Assembly (NCBI RefSeq): GCF_048593235.1 | Contig: NC_133622.1 | Location: forward strand, 246,144,055-246,208,054 | Length of the DNA stretch: 64,000 nucleotides | Reading direction: 5' to 3' | Origin: Sminthopsis crassicaudata | Lineage: Eukaryota | Shown: positions 7,991 to 54,218 of the stretch, piece by piece | Layout: each line of letters opens with the position of its first letter | Numbering within the stretch: position 1 is the first letter of the stretch | The notes under the pieces: model-generated | Seen by the model: the letters and a program-made list of their open reading frames with translations, nothing else | Database searches by the model: none | What the model was told of the DNA's origin: nothing | Program-made: the position numbers and the translations under genes

Positions 7991-9083
7991 CAAAAATATA
8001 TAGAAAACAGCTATTTCTAGGTAAAATAAAGGATTAATATAGAGAAGGCACTAGAATTAAATGAGTGGAATTACAGCTTATTTATTTATTTACCCTTTCG
8101 AGTTCATAGATATTTTTAAAGAATTTTTTTCCCCATGAAAAGTATATTCTTTGGATTTAGGTGAATAAGGATAAAAAAAATCTAATAAAATAGAACCCAA
8201 AAGCTATCTTTGAGCACTTGAACTCCAAGAGAATAGTTGCTGCTATTAAAAAAAAAAAAACAATGTAAGGTATTGGAAAGACCTAGGAGTTAAAGACACT
8301 GGGTTGTCTTTCTGATCTTTATATTAGCAAATTGTCATTTGCCATGAGACATATTGCTTTCCTGTGGATTCAGTAAAAATATTCAGTAAAAAAATGGTGT
8401 TGACCAAAAAAAAATTTAAGGAGTCATAAAATTTTAAAATTTTTTGTTTTATTCAGTAACTGAGATAGCAGAATTTTGACTATCAATGTGAATTAAGGAG
8501 AAATTTGGATGATTCACAAAATATAGGCCTTGAAAATTAGGAAAAAACATGTAAGTACTAGAATTTGAAATCTATAATGGAATGATTTAAACATCATAAT
8601 ACATTTCATATTTTATTGTAATTTTGATAATTCAATCTATAGGTAATCGCATTTTTACATATTATATTATTATATATGTGTGACATATAATTTTTATTAT
8701 AGTTTATGTTATATATTAAAATATAATAAGTGTTTTTATCTTCTCCCCTTCCTCAGTTTTCTTGCCTGTGTTTTGGAGACCTTCCTCTTTGATGTATTTG
8801 AATTTGTCTTTCCTCATAGTTGCTCTTTGTCTATCTGCCCTGCTGCCATCAGTTTAATGTAGTTTATGACAGTTTCTGTAATATCAGCTGAATTCATGGA
8901 TCAGCATTAGAATCGGCGCCTTCATTTTCAGCATTGCTCCAGCTGTGTACAGAATAGATGGAACCTGGTTCTCTTTGTGAAGTTTTTGAAAGGAGGAGAC
9001 AAGGAATTTCATTTTTCTCATTTCTTTGCTACCCTATTTCGGCTGTACTTTCGATCTCAATAATTTACTGGGAGCTAGCAAGT

Positions 9084-10061
9084 ATGGTCAACTTCACCAT
9101 CATCACAGAATTTCTCCTTGTCAATTTTGCCAGCATTTGGGAGCTACAGGTTCTTTATGCTATGTTTTTCATTCTGATTTATCTATCAACTTTGATGGGG
9201 AATTTCCTCACCATTATTGCTATTATCACTGACCAACACCTTCATGCTCCAATGTACTTTTTTCTAAGTAATTTATCCCTGTTGGATATGTGTTACATAT
9301 CAGTCACTCTTCCCAAATTCATTGTTAATACCCTGATAGACACTCCATCCATCTCCCTCCTGGGATGTATGGCTCAAATATTCTTAATTTTGTTTTTTGG
9401 AGGAGCAGAATTTGCTTTCCTCATGACCATGTCCTATGATTGTTTTGTGGCCATCTGCTACCCCCTGCACTATGGGGTCATCATGACACGAGCCCGGTGC
9501 TTTTGGGCAGCAATTGGCTCCTGGTTCACTGGCTTTGTCTATTCTGCCCTACACACAAGTAACATGTTTCGTTTGCCCTTTTCAGGATCCAATGTGATCC
9601 ACCAGTTTTTCTGTGATATACCACAGATATTGCGGATTGCAAACTCCGATGTATACAATACTGAATACCTACTACTTGCCATAAGCTCATGTTTTCTATT
9701 ATTGTGCTTTGTCCTTTTAATTATATCATATGCTCACATCTTCTCTAGTGTACTCAAGATCCCCTCCATGGAAGGACGCTACAAAGCCTTATCTACATGT
9801 TCCCCTCACTTGATTGTCCTTCTCTTATTTCTCCTTTCTATAATTATTTCAGTCTTGGGGCCGACATCAGACAGCTCACCGGTTCAGAACCTTCTTATTG
9901 CCATGGCTTACACAGTACTGCCCCCATTCATGAACCCTATCATTTATAGCTTGAGAAACCAGAAGATCAAAGTTGTGTTGATTAGGATAATCCGAATGGC
10001 TTTATTTCCCAAGAAGGATGTGTCTAGCCCTAAGAAAATTAAGAGGACAAAGAATGTATAG
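9084..10061 (+). CDS. Olfactory receptor, family 14-like (OR gene 1), 325 aa, with R-to-C in the DRY-equivalent motif
   Basis: OR motifs GN, LHAPMYFFLSNLS, MSYDCFVAICYPLHY, FFCDIP, KALSTCSPHL, PPFMNPIIYSLRN. Start placed at MVNFT (ATG 9084) by homology to the paralogs; the frame is open from 8958. Confidence 0.93.
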   Translation: MVNFTIITEFLLVNFASIWELQVLYAMFFILIYLSTLMGNFLTIIAIITDQHLHAPMYFFLSNLSLLDMCYISVTLPKFIVNTLIDTPSISLLGCMAQIFLILFFGGAEFAFLMTMSYDCFVAICYPLHYGVIMTRARCFWAAIGSWFTGFVYSALHTSNMFRLPFSGSNVIHQFFCDIPQILRIANSDVYNTEYLLLAISSCFLLLCFVLLIISYAHIFSSVLKIPSMEGRYKALSTCSPHLIVLLLFLLSIIISVLGPTSDSSPVQNLLIAMAYTVLPPFMNPIIYSLRNQKIKVVLIRIIRMALFPKKDVSSPKKIKRTKNV

Positions 10062-18407: not shown

Positions 18408-19364
18408 ATGGGCAACTTGTCAATCATCACAGAGTTCCTCCTCATGGAGTTTTCCAGCACACGTGAGCTGCAGGTCTTACATGCTGTGCTGTTCCTGCTG
18501 ATTTACCTGGCAGCCCTTCTGGGGAACCTTCTCACCTGTGCTGCAATTATCACTGACACACACCTTCACTGTCCTATGTATTTTTTCCTGAGTAACTTAT
18601 CCCTGCTGGATATTGGATCCATCTCTGTCACACTTCCTAAATTTGTTGTGAATTCCTTGAGTGGTGTTCAGTCCCTGTCCCTCCTGGGATGTGCTGCCCA
18701 GATGTTCTTCTTTCTCTTTTTTGCAGCCACAGAGTTTGCTTTGCTTGTGGCCATGTCCTATGACCGCTTTGTGGCCATCTGTCAGCCCCTCCATTATGGT
18801 ATCATCATGACTCCAGCACGTTGTCTCTGGGCAGCAGCTGGCTCATGGCTCAGTGGGCTTCTTTATTCAGCCGTACACACAGGGAACATGTTCCGGCTGC
18901 CCTTCTCAGGATCTAATGTGATCCACCAGTTTTTCTGTGACATCCCTCATGTCTTGAAAGTCTCAACCTCGGATGTGTTTAATACTGAGTTTATATTAAT
19001 TGTAGTAAGCTTGTGTTGTTTGTCATGCTGCTTTGCCTTTTTAATTGCATCCTATGCTCGCATCTTCTCCAGTGTGCTCAAGATTCCTTCTGTGGAAGGA
19101 CGCTACAAGGCCATTTCAACCTGTTCCCCTCAGTTGATAATCCTCATGTTATTCCTCATTTCTATAATGCTTGCTGTCCTCAGGGAGGCATCAGACACAT
19201 CACCTATCCAAAACCTTTTAGTTGCAGTGGCTTATACAACTTTACCTCCCCTGCTGAACCCTCTCATCTATAGCCTGAGGAACCAGAAGGTCACAGCTGC
19301 CATGGGCAAGATGATCAAAAGGATAGTTTTTCCCTACACTTCCTTGAAAATATTAAAAAGTTGA
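18408..19364 (+). CDS. Olfactory receptor, family 14-like (OR gene 2), 318 aa, intact
   Basis: LHCPMYFFLSNLS, MSYDRFVAICQPLHY, FFCDIP, KAISTCSPQL, PPLLNPLIYSLRN. First ATG in frame is 18408; the track start at 18375 is a non-ATG codon. Confidence 0.96.
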   Translation: MGNLSIITEFLLMEFSSTRELQVLHAVLFLLIYLAALLGNLLTCAAIITDTHLHCPMYFFLSNLSLLDIGSISVTLPKFVVNSLSGVQSLSLLGCAAQMFFFLFFAATEFALLVAMSYDRFVAICQPLHYGIIMTPARCLWAAAGSWLSGLLYSAVHTGNMFRLPFSGSNVIHQFFCDIPHVLKVSTSDVFNTEFILIVVSLCCLSCCFAFLIASYARIFSSVLKIPSVEGRYKAISTCSPQLIILMLFLISIMLAVLREASDTSPIQNLLVAVAYTTLPPLLNPLIYSLRNQKVTAAMGKMIKRIVFPYTSLKILKS

Positions 19365-29275: not shown

Positions 29276-30223
29276 ATGGGCAACTTGTCAATCATCACAG
29301 AATTCCTCCTCATGGAGTTTTCCAGCACACGTGACCTGCAGGTCTTACATGCTGTGCTGTTCCTGCTGATTTACCTGGCAGCCCTTCTGGGGAACCTTCT
29401 CACCTGTGCTGCAATTATCACTGACCCACACCTTCACTGTCCTATGTATTTTTTCCTGAGTAACTTATCCCTTGTAGATATTGGGACCATCTCTGTCACA
29501 CTTCCTAAATTCATTGTGAATTCCTTGAGTGGTGTTCAGTCCCTGTCCCTCCTGGGATGTGCTGCCCAGATCTTCTTCTTTCTCTTTTTTGGAACAACAG
29601 AGTTTGCTTTGCTTGTGGCCATGTCCTATGACCGCTTTGTGGCCATCTGCCAGCCCCTCCACTATGGCATCATCATGACTCCAGCACGTTGTCTCTGGGC
29701 AGCAGCTGGCTCATGGCTCAGTGGGCTTCTTTATTCAGCCGTACACACAGGAAACATGTTCCGGCTGCCCTTCTCAGGATCCAATGTGATCCACCAGTTT
29801 TTCTGTGACATCCCTCATGTCTTGAAAGTCTCGACCTCGGATGTGTTTAATACTGAGTTTATATTAATTGTAGTAAGCTTGTGCTGTTTGTTATGCTGCT
29901 TTGCCTTTTTAATCACAACCTATGCTCGCATTTTCTCCAGTGTGCTCAAGATTCCTTCTGTGGAAGGACGCTACAAGGCCATTTCCACATGCTCCCCTCA
30001 GTTGATAATCCTCATGTTATTTCTCATTTCTATAATGCTTGCTGTCCTCAGGGACACATCAGACACATCACCTATCCAAAACCTTTTAGTTGCAATGGCT
30101 TATACCACACTGCCTCCCCTGCTGAACCCTCTTATCTATAGCCTGAGGAACCAGAAGGTCACAGCTGCCATGGGCAAGATGATCAAGAGGATAGTTTTCC
30201 CCCCAATTTTTGGAAAGTATTAA
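29276..30223 (+). CDS. Olfactory receptor, family 14-like (OR gene 3), 315 aa, intact
   Basis: Same OR motifs as gene 2; ATG at 29276. Confidence 0.96.
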   Translation: MGNLSIITEFLLMEFSSTRDLQVLHAVLFLLIYLAALLGNLLTCAAIITDPHLHCPMYFFLSNLSLVDIGTISVTLPKFIVNSLSGVQSLSLLGCAAQIFFFLFFGTTEFALLVAMSYDRFVAICQPLHYGIIMTPARCLWAAAGSWLSGLLYSAVHTGNMFRLPFSGSNVIHQFFCDIPHVLKVSTSDVFNTEFILIVVSLCCLLCCFAFLITTYARIFSSVLKIPSVEGRYKAISTCSPQLIILMLFLISIMLAVLRDTSDTSPIQNLLVAMAYTTLPPLLNPLIYSLRNQKVTAAMGKMIKRIVFPPIFGKY

Positions 30224-30666
30224 GAAGTGGAAGAATGTGCATTGGTGCTGTAAAATGTGCAAGGTGATACATTAGGTCATGTAGAAATGACACCAAAAAT
30301 CATATCAATGAGGAAATAACTCTTTAGGTAAAATATTACATTGGGTAGAATGAATTGGTATTATTTTAGTGTAACTTTGAACCACTCTGTAACTGGTCAT
30401 TTTCTGTAGTGGAATATTTATGATTCTAGCCCATGTCTTTGGGCAACTGTGTCCTCAGAGGAATGGATGAAACACTCATTGATCCCATGAGGGAACAGTA
30501 GATTAGCTTAACTAAAAGCAGCCATCAGGATGATTGTGTTGTTTCTACTCTTGATATGAATCTTGTCTTATCACTTCCATTTCATGTTTTTGTTTCTCTT
30601 TATCTTTAGGATGATAATGATCTTTTTTTTCTTTGCATGTTAAAAATATATTCCTCATTCCAAGTA

Positions 30667-31134
30667 TGTAACGAGCTGTCGTCTCTAGAAGCTGCTGGAT
30701 CGCTCTCTGGGAAGAGATCTGCTGTGTCCTTTACTCAAATCTCTCCGACAGATTCTTCTTCCTGTAACGAACCGTTGTCTCCAGGCAGTTGCTGTTAACT
30801 CTTGTCCAAAGAAGTGACTTCCCTTCCTGCAGAGAGCCCCGTCAAGCCTGATGCAATTCAGAGTCTTCCTTCTTGAATCCTGGCTCTGAATCTCCTCCAG
30901 CTCTTATCCTTCTCCAGGCCGATCTGCTCTCTGCGCCCAGTGCTGTCTCTTTTTATCCTCCCAGAGAATGGGCGTGGGATAATGCAAGGGCTTCTGGGAA
31001 GAACCACCCCAGCCAATGAGCTTGCCCCCTCTATCAAGTCAACCTGAGTTCTCACCTTGTAATTGTCCAGAAAACCTGAATTCTCACCTTGTCACCATCC
31101 AGACAACCTCAGTTCTCACCTAGTAATCCCAACA
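30667..31134 (-). repeat. 3' LTR (468 bp)
   Basis: Abuts the PPT. CCAAT box at 31013-31017, TATA-like ATAAAAA at 30950-30956, AGTAAA at 30730-30735 on the minus strand. Confidence 0.96.
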
Positions 31135-31150
31135 TCTCCCCCTTTCTTTT
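31135..31150 (-). promoter_or_regulatory. Polypurine tract
   Basis: Minus strand AAAAGAAAGGGGGAGA immediately before the TGTTGGG LTR start. Confidence 0.92.
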
Positions 31151-31435
31151 GATTTAGAACATAGGACAGTCATGACCTTGAAACATAAATCCATCAATAT
31201 GGGAAGTATTACAGATAATTACATAAATTACATAAGCACATAGTAACATAGTAACATAACACATGCTAGAAGTATATAACATAATCATAATCATAAATTG
31301 AAAATTTATAAATGTCCATAAGTCCATTGTCCATTAGTCTCATCTTGTGTGAGGAAGTCCAATGATTCCTGCTGGTTTTTTAAAGTTCTTTAACAGTCTT
31401 CTTATTATCCATGCTCTTTCAGTGTCAGATGTTTC

Positions 31436-31625
31436 TTAGATCTTCTCCTTTATTTTGAGGTCTTTCTCTTTTTCTGTCTCTCTCTGATGGATAAGGCGAA
31501 TATGACTCGTTGGCACCCATCTGATTCCTTCTCCTGCTGAAGAAATACAAGCAAACCCTCTCTCCCAGGCAGTTAACCTATCTAATTTCCTTCTATTTAC
31601 CACTTTCTAAATCTCTTCTCATCAT
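31436..31625 (-). pseudogene. pol: Remnant of the betaretroviral integrase C-terminal domain
   Basis: Reads MMRRDLESGK*K, then after a frameshift LDRLTAWERGFACISSAGEGIRWVPTSHIRL. This matches the W-R/K-D..G.W.GPD..WGRG.AC..W.P pattern of betaretroviral IN C-termini. Confidence 0.75.
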
Positions 31626-31632
31626 CTGACAA

Positions 31633-33456
31633 TTACATTGGAGTTGTTTGCACTGGGCACAGCCCTGTTGGTTTAAAAGGCCTGTATTCTCCCCAAGTGT
31701 AATCCATTTTTGCAATCTGATTGCCTTTTGACTGACTTATCAGGTAATCCCTTTCTGCCATGTGATTGCTTCTCTGCTGATTGATTAAATCAGAGTCCTG
31801 GCCTTCTAAAGGTTCTTTGGGTGTAACATCAGCTGCCATCATGCCCCAAGTCTTTTTTGCCTGGGGCCCTGGACCTGGGCCCCTCATCCCATTTCCCTGA
31901 ATTATTCTACACTCTGATGCCCAATGGAGTCCTCTGTTGCATTTTGGACATGGGGTTTTAGGTCTTCTCTCACCCTGTCTTCTCACTGTATCTCCATACC
32001 TACACTGAGCTCTTAGATGTCCAATTTTTCCACATTGAAAACATCTCCGAGTTTCTCTAGAAGGCCCTTGCCAGGAGGGACCCTGTCTTTCCACATTCAT
32101 CATTGTCCGGGTGTAAAAAGCATTTGTTCCCACTGTAGCACAGCGTCTTATGATCTCCTCTAAAGGAGCATCTTTGTCTAATCCCCATATAATTCTTTTG
32201 CAAATCTCATTGGCATTTTCCTTAGCCAGATGTCTGGTCATTATTTCTGTAGCTGAATTTTCTCCAATAGTTCTTTTGACAGCAGTTTGCAAACGTCCCA
32301 CAAAATCTGCAAAAGGTTCATTGGGACCTTGCTGTATTTTAGTGAAAGCCTCTCCACGATCTTTCTGTCCAGGAAGGACACCCCAAGCTTTTATTGCAGC
32401 CTTAGCAATTTGTTCATATATTGTCATGGTATAATTAATCTGTTCCGAATTCTCTCCATATTGACCTTCACCAGCTAAGTGCTCAAAAGTGAATTGTGTG
32501 TTAACTCCTATTTCCAAATTGCATCTGACTTGAATTTTACATAATTCATGAAATTCCGCAAGCCATAATAAATTTTCTCCAGGCTCCAGACATGTCCTTG
32601 CTATGGATTTCCAATCATTCGGGGTTAGGACTTCATAAGACAAACCATCTAGTAACATTTTGACATAAGCTGATGTAGCCCCATAAAGGGTACAACCTTT
32701 TTTCAAATCCTTAATTGTATTCAAATCTAAAGGTGCATATCTTCTCCTTTTTTTACCTACAGAGTCAGTATTTTCAATCACAGGATATGCATGTATAAAA
32801 TCACTTATATCCTGTCCTTCTCTCTTAGCTTTAACCAATGCTTTTTCTAATCTTGTCATAGGCTTAGGCTTCTTCACAGGCAATTCTGTTTGTGTTTCTG
32901 CCTCTTCCCCTCTTTCTTCCTCCATCTCTGAAGGTGGGGTTGATGTGGGCCTGTCAATAATCTGTTCTCTAGGCAGGGTTGAAGCTTCTTCAAGAGAATC
33001 ATACCATAATTCCTCATTTAAATCCTCTTGCTCTAGGGAAAGATCTTGATCTTTCCTTTTTTCCTCACACTTCCTCCTCTGTTCATTTTTAGAACTTTTC
33101 CTTCTCCTACAACTTGCTTGATAGTTTAAGGCTAATTGAACTATGTTGTAGATATAAAATACTTCTGCAGAAATTGAACGAGGCCCATTTTTTGCTTGAA
33201 ATTCTTTCATTTCATATCCCACTAGCTTCCATTTATCTACATCTATTTTTTCTTCCTCTAAGAACCAAGGGGATGTGCGTCTTAATGCAGCCAAGAGTTT
33301 AGCAATCTGTACCCAGGTTACAAGTAAACTCTGCTCCTCAATTATGTTGATTATACTCTCTATAGTACCACTCCTGAATGGAGCTGAGGTTGCGTCTGGG
33401 GCTGAGGTTGAGTCGGCTGAGGTCCAGGGATTGAATATAGCTAACATCTGCCCCAT
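31633..33456 (-). CDS. gag: Intact betaretrovirus-like Gag polyprotein, 607 aa (MA, CA, NC with two CCHC knuckles, C-terminal extension)
   Basis: MGQ myristoylation-type start, major homology region IQQGPNEPFADFVGRL, zinc knuckles CFQCGKIGHLRAQC and CPKCNRGLHWASEC, GNGMRGP tail motif. Confidence 0.96.
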   Translation of the reverse strand: MGQMLAIFNPWTSADSTSAPDATSAPFRSGTIESIINIIEEQSLLVTWVQIAKLLAALRRTSPWFLEEEKIDVDKWKLVGYEMKEFQAKNGPRSISAEVFYIYNIVQLALNYQASCRRRKSSKNEQRRKCEEKRKDQDLSLEQEDLNEELWYDSLEEASTLPREQIIDRPTSTPPSEMEEERGEEAETQTELPVKKPKPMTRLEKALVKAKREGQDISDFIHAYPVIENTDSVGKKRRRYAPLDLNTIKDLKKGCTLYGATSAYVKMLLDGLSYEVLTPNDWKSIARTCLEPGENLLWLAEFHELCKIQVRCNLEIGVNTQFTFEHLAGEGQYGENSEQINYTMTIYEQIAKAAIKAWGVLPGQKDRGEAFTKIQQGPNEPFADFVGRLQTAVKRTIGENSATEIMTRHLAKENANEICKRIIWGLDKDAPLEEIIRRCATVGTNAFYTRTMMNVERQGPSWQGPSRETRRCFQCGKIGHLRAQCRYGDTVRRQGERRPKTPCPKCNRGLHWASECRIIQGNGMRGPGPGPQAKKTWGMMAADVTPKEPLEGQDSDLINQQRSNHMAERDYLISQSKGNQIAKMDYTWGEYRPFKPTGLCPVQTTPM

Positions 33457-33624
33457 TTCAGCTATAAGAGATTCCTGGTTTAGCCCTTAACAAGTTAAGT
33501 TCCTTATTTATCTATTAGCACGCTCACTTAATCTTTAACAAAGTTTCCTCGTTACTCACGGTTCTGGGTCAGAGAGACTGAGATCTAGATCGGAAGCTTT
33601 TCCACTGGAATCAGGACTGTGTCT

Positions 33625-33642
33625 GTCCCTGTTCGGGCGCCA
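33625..33642 (-). promoter_or_regulatory. Second (internal) primer-binding site, tRNA-Lys3
   Basis: Minus strand TGGCGCCCGAACAGGGAC, 18/18 to the tRNA-Lys3 PBS used by HIV-1 and MMTV. Confidence 0.93.
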
Positions 33643-33693
33643 AATTGCAAAGGTCTGGTCTAGCTCTTCTTGTCAGAATAAGCAAAAGTCCTT

Positions 33694-33711
33694 GCCCCAC
33701 GTTGGGCGCCA
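33694..33711 (-). promoter_or_regulatory. Primer-binding site, tRNA-Lys1,2
   Basis: Minus strand TGGCGCCCAACGTGGGGC, 2 nt after the 5' LTR terminal CA; 18/18 to the tRNA-Lys1,2 PBS (MPMV type). Confidence 0.95.
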
Positions 33712-33713
33712 AT

Positions 33714-34178
33714 TGTAACGAGCTGTCGTCTCTAGAAGCTGCTGGATCGCTCTCTGGGAAGAGATCTGCTGTGTCTAATCAAATCTCTCCGACAGATTCT
33801 TCTTCCTGTAACGAACCGTTGTCTCCAGGCAGTTGCTGTTAACTCTTGTCCAAAGAAGTGACTTCCCTTCCTGCAGAGAGCCCCGTCAAGCCTGATGCAA
33901 TTCAGAGTCTTCCTTCTTGAATCCTGGCTCTGAATCTCCTCCAGCTCTTATCCTTCTCCAGGCCGATCTGCTCTCTGCGCCCAGTGCTGTCTCTTTTTAT
34001 CCTCCCAGAGAATGGGCGTGGGATAATGCAAGGGCTTCTGGGAAGAACCACCCCAGCCAATGAGCTTGCCCCCTCTATCAAGTCAACCTGAGTTCTCACC
34101 TTGTAATTGTCCAGAAAACCTGAATTCTCACCTTGTCACCATCCAGACAACCTCAGTTCTCACCTAGTAATCCCAACA
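33714..34178 (-). repeat. 5' LTR (465 bp)
   Basis: Identical by eye to the 3' LTR except taa (33776-33778) in place of ctttac. Confidence 0.96.
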
Positions 34179-36376
34179 CAAGTAGAAATAAATAGGCACA
34201 CGTACATTTACAATTCATTCATTTAAACATGCATGTGCAATACCTACACATGTGCACACACATGTGTTTGCATGCTCTAGTTTTCTGGGTAGGAATTTAA
34301 ACTTTTTGTTTCTTATTTGTTCATTTGTAAAATGACATGGTTGGCTTGATGAACTCTATTTCCTCTAAGGTTTTTAGCCATGATTTTGCCAAAATTTTTC
34401 CTCATACCTTAAGCTGGAATTAATATTCAATACTTTTAACTTTATACATTGTCTTTTTTAGGTATGTATTACATTAATTTTCCATTACACCTACATGAAT
34501 AAATGCCTTATGTATCTTGGTGGATTCTCTCTTCACTTTCCCAATCACATACATCTAGGTCAAGTGGTACAAATAATGGTTGTCTTGAAGTGATCGTGTG
34601 TACTTCAATTACCACTGTATGAAGTTACTATTATACAAAATATGCTGATTGGCTTCTAATTCAGGGAAAATATCTTGTCTGAAGTTAAAAATGCAACTAC
34701 TTCAGGGATTTGTACTAATTAGGGCTTTGTTAAATTCCATATAAGAAAGATATTTTCATCGTTGTCTTTATATTCCTAGGACTTTTATAAAGCATAGAAT
34801 AAGCATTTTATAATTTATTGTATATTAATTTGAAATTTCTTGAGAACTGAAGCCTTTTTTATTTAACTTTATATACACCTATCACTACTACTTAACCTAA
34901 AATCTCTTTCATGGGAGACTATTGATGAAAATTAATTATTTNNNNNNNNNNNNNNNNNNNNNNNNNNNNNNNNNNNNNNNNNNNNNNNNNNNNNNNNNNN
35001 NNNNNNNNNNNNNNNNNNNNNNNNNNNNNNNNNNNNNNNNNNNNNNNNNNNNNNNNNNNNNNNNNNNNNNNNNATGGATGGACAGAGAAGAGGCCTTTTT
35101 AAAATGCTCATGAGTTAAGTGGCAATGTAATGTAGGGACTCCCCTTAGCTCTCCCAAATTCCCTTCCAAACAACTTTAAAGTAAAGCATAAAATTTGAGC
35201 CTAAAAGGCATAAATGACAAAAAAATCAGGATAAAAGAATTTTCCATCCTGAGGTTGGAGAGGAGATTTGCAGTAAAGATTTCATAGGAGTGATGGTTAG
35301 GCTTGGAATGCAGTGTAGACTGCAATTTGGAAACCAACAGTGGGCCATGGGATTTGCTGTTTTTTTCCCTAGGTTTGGGAATAAGAACTCTAGCAAAATT
35401 TTTTGGGAAAACTGAAAAGCTTTTTTTTTTTTTTTTTTTTTTTTTTGCCAAAAGCTCATTATAGAACATATCATCTCCCAAGATAAAGTAAAAATGGGTA
35501 CCTGATTTTGTCACAAAAGTTTATTGGATCAACAAATTACAGGAGCATGGAATATTTTACTTGTCAAATCTTTAGAGAAGTGAAGAATTTATGACTAAGA
35601 TATAAATAACTTTATGAAATTCAAAATGGACAAATTATATTATATTAAATTAAATTTTTTTTGCACAAACAAAATAAATGCAACTAAGATTATGAGAAAA
35701 ACAGAAAATTGGGAGATAATTTTTACTACTGGTGTTTCTGTGAAAGGCCTCATGTATAATGCATGTAATGAGGTGAATCAAATTGATAAGAATATAAATC
35801 CTTCCCCCATTAATAAATAGTGAAAGGTATGAACAATTTTCACATGAAGAAGTTAAAGCTATTTATAGTCATATGAAAATACTCTATATCACTATTGCTT
35901 AAAAACATGCAAATTAAAACAACACTGAGGTATCATTTAACACCTCGTAGATTGACTCATGATAGAAAAGGAAAATGATAACAGGTGGATGTGCAGAGAA
36001 AAGGAGGATACTTTAGGCAGTATTAGCTGAGATGTGAACTGAAATGACAAATTTGAAGAACATTTTTGAAGTATGACTAAAGGGCTATAAAACTATGAGT
36101 ACCCTTTGTTCTAGCATTATAATTATTTGGTCTATATCCCAAATAGATTTAAAGAAAGGAGCAAGAGGAAGGACTTATTTATATAAAAATATTTATGTTG
36201 GCTCTGTCTATGTTGATAAAGAATTTGAAAGGCCCATCAATAGTGGAACGATTTAAGCAGTATATAATTGTAAAAAAAAAATAAAATAATGATAATGTTA
36301 GAAAAACCTGGAACTACTTATATACAAAGTTAACTGAACAGAATCATGAGAACATTGGACACAGTAAAATGAATAA

Positions 36377-42158: not shown

Positions 42159-43085
42159 ATGAGCAACTTGTCAATCATCACAGAATTCCTCCTCATGGAG
42201 TTTTCCAGCACACGTGAGCTGCAGGTCTTACATGCTGTGCTGTTCCTGCTGATTTACCTGGCAGCCCTTCTGGGGAACCTTCTCACCTGTGCTGCAATTA
42301 TCACTGACCCACACCTTCACTGTCCTATGTATTTTTTCCTGAGTAACTTATCCCTTGTGGATATCGGCAACATCTCTGTCACACTTCCTAAGTTCATTGT
42401 GAATTCCTTATGTGGCGTTCAGTCCCTGTCCCTCCTGGGATGTGCTGCCCAGATGTTCTTCTTTCTTTTCTTTGTAGTCACTGAGTTTGCTTTGCTTGTG
42501 GCCATGTCCTATGACCGCTTCATAGCCATCTGCCAGCCCCTCCACTATGGTATCATCATGACCCCAGCACGTTGTCTCTGGGCAGCAGCTGGCTCATGGC
42601 TCAGTGGGCTTCTTTATTCAGCTGTACACACAGGAAACATGTTCCGGCTGCCCTTCTCAGGTTCCAATGTGATCCACCAATTTTTCTGTGACATCCCTCA
42701 TGTCTTGAAAGTTTCAACCTCTGATGTGTTTAATACTGAGTTTGTATTAATTGTAGTAAGCTTGTGCTGTTTGTTATGCTGCTTTGCCTTTTTAATCACA
42801 ACCTATGCTCGCATTTTCTCCAGTGTGCTCAAGATTCCTTCTGTGGAAGGACGCTACAAGGCTATTTCCACATGCTCCCCTCAGTTGATAATCCTCATGT
42901 TATTTCTTGTGTCTGGAATGATTGCAGTCCTCAGGGAGGCATCAGACACATCACCTATCCAAAACCTTTTAATTGCAATGGCTTATACAACATTACCTCC
43001 CCTGCTGAACCCTCTCATCTATAGCCTGAGGAACCAGAAGGTCACAGCTGCCATGGGCAAGATGATCAAGAGAATGTTTTTTTAA
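42159..43085 (+). CDS. Olfactory receptor, family 14-like (OR gene 4), 308 aa, intact
   Basis: Same OR motifs; ATG at 42159. Confidence 0.96.
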   Translation: MSNLSIITEFLLMEFSSTRELQVLHAVLFLLIYLAALLGNLLTCAAIITDPHLHCPMYFFLSNLSLVDIGNISVTLPKFIVNSLCGVQSLSLLGCAAQMFFFLFFVVTEFALLVAMSYDRFIAICQPLHYGIIMTPARCLWAAAGSWLSGLLYSAVHTGNMFRLPFSGSNVIHQFFCDIPHVLKVSTSDVFNTEFVLIVVSLCCLLCCFAFLITTYARIFSSVLKIPSVEGRYKAISTCSPQLIILMLFLVSGMIAVLREASDTSPIQNLLIAMAYTTLPPLLNPLIYSLRNQKVTAAMGKMIKRMFF

Positions 43086-53276: not shown

Positions 53277-54218
53277 ATGAGCAACTTCTCAATCATCACA
53301 GAATTCTTCCTCACGGAGTTTTCCAGCACACGTGAGCTGCAGGTCTTACATGGTGCACTGTTCCTGCTGATTTACCTGGCAGCCCTTCTGGGGAACCTTC
53401 TCACCTGTGCTGCAATTATCACTGACCCACACCTTCACTGTCCTATGTATTTTTTCCTGAGTAACTTATCCCTTGTGGATATCGGCAACATCTCCGTCAC
53501 ACTTCCTAAATTTATTGTGAATTCCTTGTGTGGCATTCAGTCCCTCTCCCTCCTGGGATGTGCTGCCCAGATGTTCTTCTTTATCCTTTTTGCAGCCACA
53601 GAGTTTGCTTTACTGGTGGCCATGTCCTATGACCGCTTTGTGGCCATCTGTCAGCCCCTCCACTATGGCATCATCATGACCCCAGCACGTTGTCTCTGGG
53701 CAGCAGCTGTCTCATGGATCAGTGGGCTTCTTTATTCAGCTGTACTCACAGGGAACATGTTCCGGCTGCCCTTCTCAGGATCCAATGTGATCCACCAGTT
53801 TTTCTGTGACATCCCTCATGTCTTGAAAGTCTCAGCCTCTGATGTGTTTAAGACTGAGTTTGTGTTAATTGTATCAAGTTCATATCTTTTCTTATTCTGT
53901 TTTGCCTTTTTAATTGCATCCTATGCCCGTATCTTCTCCAGTGTGCTCAAGATTCCTTCTGTGGAAGGACGCTACAAGGCCATTTCAAACTGTTTTCCTC
54001 AGTTGATAATCCTCATGTTATTTCTCTCTTCTTCAATGATGGCAGTTTTCAGGGACACATCAGACACATCACCTATCCAAAACCTTTTAATTGCAATAGC
54101 CTATACCACACTGCCTCCCCTGTTGAACCCTTTCATCTATAGCCTGAGGAACCAGAAGGTCTCAGCTGCCATGGGCAAGATGATCAAGAGGATATTTTTT
54201 CAGAGAAAAAAATGTTAA
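53277..54218 (+). CDS. Olfactory receptor, family 14-like (OR gene 5), 313 aa, intact ORF with a divergent TM6 motif (KAISNCFPQL)
   Basis: OR motifs as above; ATG at 53277. Confidence 0.95.
   Translation: MSNFSIITEFFLTEFSSTRELQVLHGALFLLIYLAALLGNLLTCAAIITDPHLHCPMYFFLSNLSLVDIGNISVTLPKFIVNSLCGIQSLSLLGCAAQMFFFILFAATEFALLVAMSYDRFVAICQPLHYGIIMTPARCLWAAAVSWISGLLYSAVLTGNMFRLPFSGSNVIHQFFCDIPHVLKVSASDVFKTEFVLIVSSSYLFLFCFAFLIASYARIFSSVLKIPSVEGRYKAISNCFPQLIILMLFLSSSMMAVFRDTSDTSPIQNLLIAIAYTTLPPLLNPFIYSLRNQKVSAAMGKMIKRIFFQRKKC

Follow-up and report, generated by a model that had tools for sequence, protein, structure and literature searches.

A young gag-only betaretroviral family in Sminthopsis crassicaudata and its possible division of labour with a gag-pro-fused helper family

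The stretch of Sminthopsis crassicaudata DNA analysed here (64,000 nt, hereafter the window) contains a provirus that has kept an open gag but none of the retroviral enzymes, raising the question of how such an element is propagated and whether it needs the Gag that it encodes. The provirus occupies 3,512 nt of the minus strand (30667–34178) and is flanked on both sides by the 6-bp target site duplication (TSD) CAAGTA, found at 34179–34184 next to the 5′ LTR and at 30661–30666 next to the 3′ LTR. The 5′ LTR (33714–34178; 465 nt) and the 3′ LTR (30667–31134; 468 nt) are identical but for one substitution and an adjacent 3-nt indel, bearing out a preliminary description of the locus, which reported near-identical LTRs and a clean TSD. 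The sole long ORF is gag (33456–31633, minus strand; 607 aa), in which Pfam identified Gag_p10, Gag_p24 and Gag_p24_C along with two zinc knuckles, these being followed by a family-specific tail. The solved structures closest to this protein are the Gag entries 8c9m and 6hwi, which we take to be the Gag proteins of HERV-K and M-PMV. Between the LTRs pro, RT and env are all absent; the ORF, the Pfam domains and the LTR-to-LTR reading thus agree with the earlier account of a gag-only element with an open 607-codon gag. The beta-type Gag (p10 matrix (MA), capsid (CA) and two CCHC knuckles) and the 6-bp TSD are class II features, and the element also has what is presumably a lysine primer binding site (PBS), a betaretrovirus-like feature of the same class.

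Two details of the preliminary description required revision. The leader that it reported is present, but contains two tandem PBS-like sites rather than one: the first adjoins the LTR (33694–33711, minus strand) and is presumably of tRNA-Lys1,2 type, and the second lies 69 nt downstream (33625–33642, minus strand) and is presumably of tRNA-Lys3 type. The rest of the leader (33457–33624, minus strand) is the presumed packaging region. The integrase C-terminal remnant (31436–31685, minus strand) is damaged as described, with one stop and one frameshift before it terminates at 31436, but does not start directly behind the gag stop. The junction at which the deletion joins the gag/pro-start region to the integrase C-terminus lies near 31686–31681 (minus strand; position approximate, with short microhomology), about 50 nt ahead of the stop, and the last ~16 codons of the gag ORF therefore derive from integrase. 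The AT-rich 3′ UTR of roughly 290 nt and the polypurine tract (PPT) described earlier were both found, the former measuring about 285 nt (31151–31435, minus strand) and the latter lying at 31135–31150 (minus strand).

We searched the genome (3.24 Gb in 8 contigs) for copies of the same family, here called G. A 24-mer spanning the junction gave 2,387 exact matches and its reversed control none; a tail motif gave 2,047 matches, and 843 places matched a particular variant of the stop region. From list overlap on part of contig C1 (67/82) we estimate that there are about 2,900 copies. Seventy-seven copies were read whole, these being the 37 best matches and the first 40 further contig C1 places of the 843-match list, a sample that favours the window copy's own subfamily. 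The elements are 3.2–3.6 kb long and contain gag only, gag being open over at least 565 codons in 28/40 contig C1 copies and 27/37 best-match copies. Two LTRs were present in 62 of the 77, and 53 of these 62 had a TSD of 5–6 bp, all TSDs being distinct within each sample. The LTRs were mismatch-free in 19 of the 62, with a mean divergence of 0.5–0.7%. The 2,387 exact junctions, together with the separate TSDs, indicate that G replicates in its deleted form, as the preliminary description suggested, and that the window copy is one young insertion. A post-insertion deletion private to the window locus is ruled out by the genome-wide junction matches. We also looked for an unfused autonomous parent carrying the G tail, and rejected it: none of 20 extra tail-motif loci ran into pro, 19 having the G junction and one another deletion.

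Several further features of G copies were recorded. Among the few candidates in protein databases, G-type tails occurred only in records named fat-tailed dunnart, and a 607-aa relative is annotated by NCBI as a gene model. One run carrying a second organism label also contains 134 nt of the G tail region, identical throughout. The LTRs fall into length classes of ~375, 405, 435 and 465 nt, both in G and in the helper family A described below. In the tandem PBS region (33625–33711 of the window), the first site has a 19-nt variant in 25/77 G and 8/28 A copies, which may reflect the use of another tRNA or escape from silencing by tRNA fragments. An extra PBS behind the 3′ LTR, seen at 6/77 G and 3/28 A loci, marks head-to-tail arrays that share LTRs (L054, on contig C2 near 464.76 Mb, and L043, L051, L066, L076, L096, L172, L191 and L201).

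To find a source of enzymes for G, we performed a genome profile search with RVT_thumb and IN_DBD_C, which identified three families with long pol frames. Only the family with a pol of 895 codons (family A) matches the G LTR, double PBS, leader and 3′ UTR, in line with the earlier proposal that Pol is taken from a helper. For the window copy, the 5′ LTR is up to 98% identical to that of an A copy, the second PBS-like site is present in A too, and identity with A is 94–100% in the leader and 98–100% in the 3′ UTR. Family A lacks env, is about 6.3 kb long, and carries RVT_1, RVT_thumb and IN_DBD_C in its pol region. We estimate its size at ~800–1,200 copies (one estimate being ~1,190), and G outnumbers it about 2.5:1. 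Its LTRs are mismatch-free in 7 of 22 two-LTR copies, 19 of which have a TSD, and both long frames are open in 8 of 20 position-sampled copies. Family A therefore combines the properties expected of a helper, with LTR ends, PBS and PPT in common with G and a similar age.

Comparison of the two families points to continuing exchange between them. G and A are 95–100% identical except in a core of ~350–400 nt at the tail and junction, where identity falls to 76–90% (about 31600–31950 of the window, minus strand; limits approximate); gag codons 1–505 of G lie within the 95–100% range. Judged from these alignments, the core of G is best read as an old deletion lying within continually exchanged flanks. 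On a CA-nucleocapsid (NC) tree of 95 rows (70 G and 25 A, rows with more than 30 missing bases being excluded), the A/G label changes 17 times against a mean of 22.5 for shuffled labels; at least 5 of these changes are forced by well-supported branches, on a bootstrap that had not fully settled. Two very different MA alleles are each present in both families. Recombination between A and G implies that their RNAs are co-packaged. Direct recombinants with a G tail and an A pro gave at least 9 exact genome matches for one motif form; the two that were read appear separate and recent, and in both of them stops close the overlap in the pro frame.

The second MA allele (~185 codons) is hardly alignable with the first as DNA and was found, in several length variants that keep the frame, in 28/77 G and 5/28 A copies (loci include L031, L034, L047, L054, L190 and L194; L048 has parts of both alleles). 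A third, gag-less form, in which the first PBS is joined directly to the start of the A pro region through short microhomology, gave 23 exact genome matches (loci L240, L243 and L245).

Could another family serve G instead? The candidates would be the unfused sister family B or an env-bearing family resembling MEBrv1, and both have long open pol frames; in addition, the G tail resembles B over ~100 nt. However, neither the 300-nt LTR of B nor the MEBrv1-like LTR matches that of G, and outside the core G is 61–88% identical to B as against 95–100% to A. No recent G–B recombinant was present among the 77 G copies. We consider a helper other than A the least probable of the explanations weighed here. 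The families with pol frames of 887 and 907 aa were rejected as helpers, neither having an LTR that matches G. The 887-codon pol belongs to a separate young betaretrovirus family with a dUTPase (L168–L170 and L186), which by eye is the published MEBrv1.

We examined whether the gag frame is under selection in G by scoring variants against the window copy and dividing them into those shared by several copies and those private to one. In codons 187–505 (73 copies), singletons comprised 100 nonsynonymous (N) and 42 synonymous (S) changes and 3 stops (omega about 1), whereas shared variants comprised 47N/39S and no stops (omega about 0.5; p=0.022). The tail (codons 506–607) was analysed in 96 copies, consisting of the full copies and 19 short loci, and is absent in this form from helper A. 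Here singletons were 75N/22S with 2 stops and shared variants 35N/25S with none (p=0.019). After removal of CpG sites the tail signal had p=0.005 in the gag frame; the two remaining frames gave p=0.34 and 0.70. All 7 gag stops were private to single G copies. Similarly, frameshifting indels in gag codons 187–607 were private in 20 cases and shared in none, whereas indels of frameshifting length in the leader and 3′ region were shared in 17 cases and private in 18 (p=1.3e-4 versus gag). The indel counts exclude codons 1–186 because of alignment artefacts in the divergent second MA allele (MA2), and MA2 copies were left out of the MA N/S count. No sign of purifying selection came from the region of the first allele (MA1; p=0.77, with 14N/4S among shared variants), and the old pro (−1) frame of the tail contained stops in 91/91 G copies.

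A potential difficulty with this analysis is that G might be a passenger of non-coding type and that recurrent recombination with A might overwrite its gag. The 95–100% identity of gag codons 1–505 to A would fit such hitchhiking, as would the finding that 61 of 86 shared CA-NC variants also occur in A. CA-NC variants shared in G and unseen in 28 A copies show a weak depletion (15N/10S; 9N/4S in the position sample), and for this reason part of the CA-NC signal may have been imported from A. Yet purifying selection on the tail, which A lacks, is specific to the gag frame, and among 96 copies no stop or frameshift is shared, making hitchhiking improbable. The purifying signal is strongest in the tail and for frame-breaking changes, and is absent in MA1. 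The restriction of stops and frameshifts to private variants, and the depletion of nonsynonymous changes solely in the gag frame, with the G-specific tail included, indicate that the gag frame is under selection in G itself and is needed in cis. The earlier suggestion of selection on gag only is supported, and the sister copies lack the pattern that would have refuted it, a gag with dN/dS near 1 and many stops. An element whose gag is broken seems to leave no progeny, as cis-preferential packaging would predict.

An open gag could also be kept by the host, and the preliminary description raised the possibility of a dominant-negative Gag restriction factor. Fv1 and enJSRV are examples of Gag restriction factors. 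The intact CA and NC domains of the open gag, and the NCBI gene model for a 607-aa relative, would be compatible with a co-opted protein of this kind. The selection detected, however, acts on replicating lineages through shared variants, singletons being neutral (omega about 1), and Gag 1–505 is essentially the helper's own. The window copy belongs to a population of thousands of young, interchangeable elements rather than being a fixed single locus under host selection, and helper A is just as young (7/22 mismatch-free LTRs). We therefore regard that suggestion as unsupported; a restriction factor seems to us still more improbable than hitchhiking.

The organization of gag and pro in A bears upon what G contributes. 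Behind its second zinc knuckle, A has lost 11 nt, and with an additional in-frame loss of 60 nt this deletion brings gag and pro into a shared reading frame of about 785 aa, so that a single protein has both the Gag and the aspartyl protease domains; pol lies behind one further frame change. The fusing deletion was present in 8/8 A copies that had been selected through the pol ORF, and the fusion junction gave 793 genome matches compared with 826 for the A pro start. We read 18 pro-start loci that lack the exact junction motif: 14 had the same deletion (3 with an extra 1-nt loss), 3 were gag-less and 1 was truncated. Two further pro-start loci, chosen for an adjoining G motif, were G-tail/A-pro recombinants. 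The frameshift signal of A is degraded: its pseudoknot loop measures 3 nt instead of 14, stem 1 is weaker, and the −1 frame has a stop behind the slippery heptamer. In the window copy of G the gag-pro slippery heptamer and pseudoknot-like stems are kept (31843–31897, minus strand), the −1 frame behind them being closed by stops. No named fused Gag-Pro appeared in protein database searches, where the few candidates are not evidence of absence. In single copies, L185 (1,175 codons) and L228 (1,124 codons), pro and pol were found in one frame.

Family B differs from A in this region. All 8 B copies examined are unfused, with the slippery heptamer, a 7-pair stem 1 and an open −1 frame, and 7 of the 8 have a 6-pair stem 2 with a 14-nt loop. 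B is ~7.1 kb long and its 300-nt LTR is unlike that of A, but the Pol proteins of A and B are 92% identical. The window gag ORF extends beyond the position of the B gag stop. A devil protein record also has an unfused tail (62% identity over the tail region), and the published MEBrv3 representative has gag and pro in separate frames (PMC11334065). Since B, the MEBrv3 representative and the devil protein are all unfused, the fusion in A is derived. The losses in the two families are complementary, A having lost part of the gag tail and G the pro frame. Given the fusion and the degraded frameshift signal, free Gag should be scarce in A, and it is all that G makes. We looked for a satellite like G in family B by the balance of gag-tail and pro motifs (739 versus 667; co-located in 54/100 and 54/95); by this test, which covers one family and one motif pair, there was none.

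We consider it evenly balanced whether G forms one half of a two-component env-less system, partly mutualistic with A. Under this two-component model, G RNA would yield free Gag that preferentially packages G RNA, while A would provide protease, RT and integrase, and particles would hold the products of both families and often both RNAs. A alone would make about one protease per Gag; free Gag from G would restore an ordinary Gag:protease ratio and aid assembly. Because the main product of A is predicted to be a Gag-Pro fusion, free Gag from G would dilute the protease, so that G would be a partner and not a mere passenger. Such a division of labour is suggested by the structures of the two families, and a review states that capsid assembly in MMTV and HIV suffers when the protease is activated too early (PMC8537868). 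As a counterpoint, broken A copies or B could be further sources of Gag. A stricter form, which is possible but doubtful, is an obligately bipartite endogenous retrovirus in which A is the enzyme-rich, gag-pro-fused component and G the gag-only structural one, neither being efficient alone. Ribosomal frameshifting would then no longer set the Gag:Pro:Pol ratio, which would depend on how many copies of each of the two genomes there are and how strongly each is expressed, and A and G would behave as one recombining population.

Wheat retrotransposons offer a precedent for such pairing. RLG_Cereba and RLG_Quinta consist of a single-ORF helper and a gag-only partner with common LTR ends, PBS and PPT (PMC11302176), and RLG_Sabrina/WHAM with Wilma is a similar combination (PMC9744471). 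In these accounts, two divergent Gag types have been swapped by recombination and the partner is proposed as a bulk source of Gag. The wheat elements are plant Gypsy elements, their helper is natively single-ORF, and the helper Gag barely aligns to that of Quinta as DNA. G and A, in contrast, are derived from a mammalian retrovirus, have lost the frameshift secondarily, and draw on one common gag pool.

The preliminary description, which proposed a parasite supplying its own Gag, missed the gag-pro fusion in the helper, and it is this fusion that places complementation beside parasitism as a reading. An in-frame fusion of Gag and protease is natural in the avian alpharetroviruses, among which we know of no gag-only partner; A may thus be self-sufficient, and residual slippage could give it some free Gag, in view of the stop in the −1 frame behind the slippery site. 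G would then be a pure cis-preferring parasite, akin to a defective-interfering element, that keeps gag so as to secure its own RNA and prevails over A in the competition for enzymes. We hold this to be somewhat short of an even chance, nearly as likely as the two-component model. Every genomic result on G fits it equally, and the excess of G over A of about 2.5:1 is typical of parasites. The bovine D-type elements likewise outnumber the C-type (PMC10924933), and a cis effect of an element's own protein is described for the mouse IAP element IΔ1 (PMC6466679). Parasitism leaves unexplained why a satellite accompanies fused A and none was seen for unfused B, and also the complementary losses of gag tail and pro frame.

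These two mammalian systems resemble G in part. IΔ1 is a deleted, helper-dependent form of an env-less class II element whose own protein acts in cis, but its coding capacity is a partial gag-pol fusion, and it depends on gag and pol supplied in trans (PMC6466679); G keeps a whole Gag, and the altered frame lies in helper A. The ERVK[2-1-LTR] C/D pair of cattle, with which MusD/ETn and KoRV/recKoRV are grouped, shares with A and G an old divergent core, flanks that recombine with the helper and a commoner defective form (PMC10924933). The D-type elements have no intact ORF, unlike G with its selected full-length gag.

The system appears from sequence comparison to derive from dasyurid MEBrv3, with G and A as derived subfamilies. 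By eye, the Gag tail, Pro and integrase C-terminus are close to the deposited MEBrv3 representative, and MEBrv3 is likewise env-less, recent and very abundant (PMC11334065). The representative is 7.3 kb long with separate gag, pro and pol, a structure that B fits, whereas G has gag only and A is 6.3 kb and fused. The portion of the MEBrv3 text examined mentions no gag-only or gag-pro-fused subfamily, and the paper as a whole uses 'non-autonomous' 0 times (PMC11334065). More generally, the literature searched, which missed most subscription papers and repeat databases, contained no description of G or A.

MaLR and plant TR-GAG are non-autonomous LTR elements with only a gag-like ORF. The MaLRs are class III elements with small traces of retroviral homology (PMC6466679). 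G is a mammalian gag-only endogenous retrovirus family for which population evidence indicates that Gag is required in cis, and betaretrovirus-derived A has succeeded after losing the gag-pro frameshift regarded as setting the protease dose. Should G and A prove complementary, they would represent a natural split of a retroviral genome into two cooperating segments, hitherto proposed mainly for plant retrotransposons, and whether G is parasite or mutualist could be tested from copy-number variation among animals. With ~4,000 young copies between them, G and A probably rank among the main present sources of insertion variation in this genome. In the window, the insertion lies 444 nt behind, and antisense to, the third of five open olfactory-receptor-like ORFs arranged in tandem on the plus strand (8958–10061, 18408–19364, 29276–30223, 42159–43085 and 53277–54218), one of which was confirmed by Pfam.
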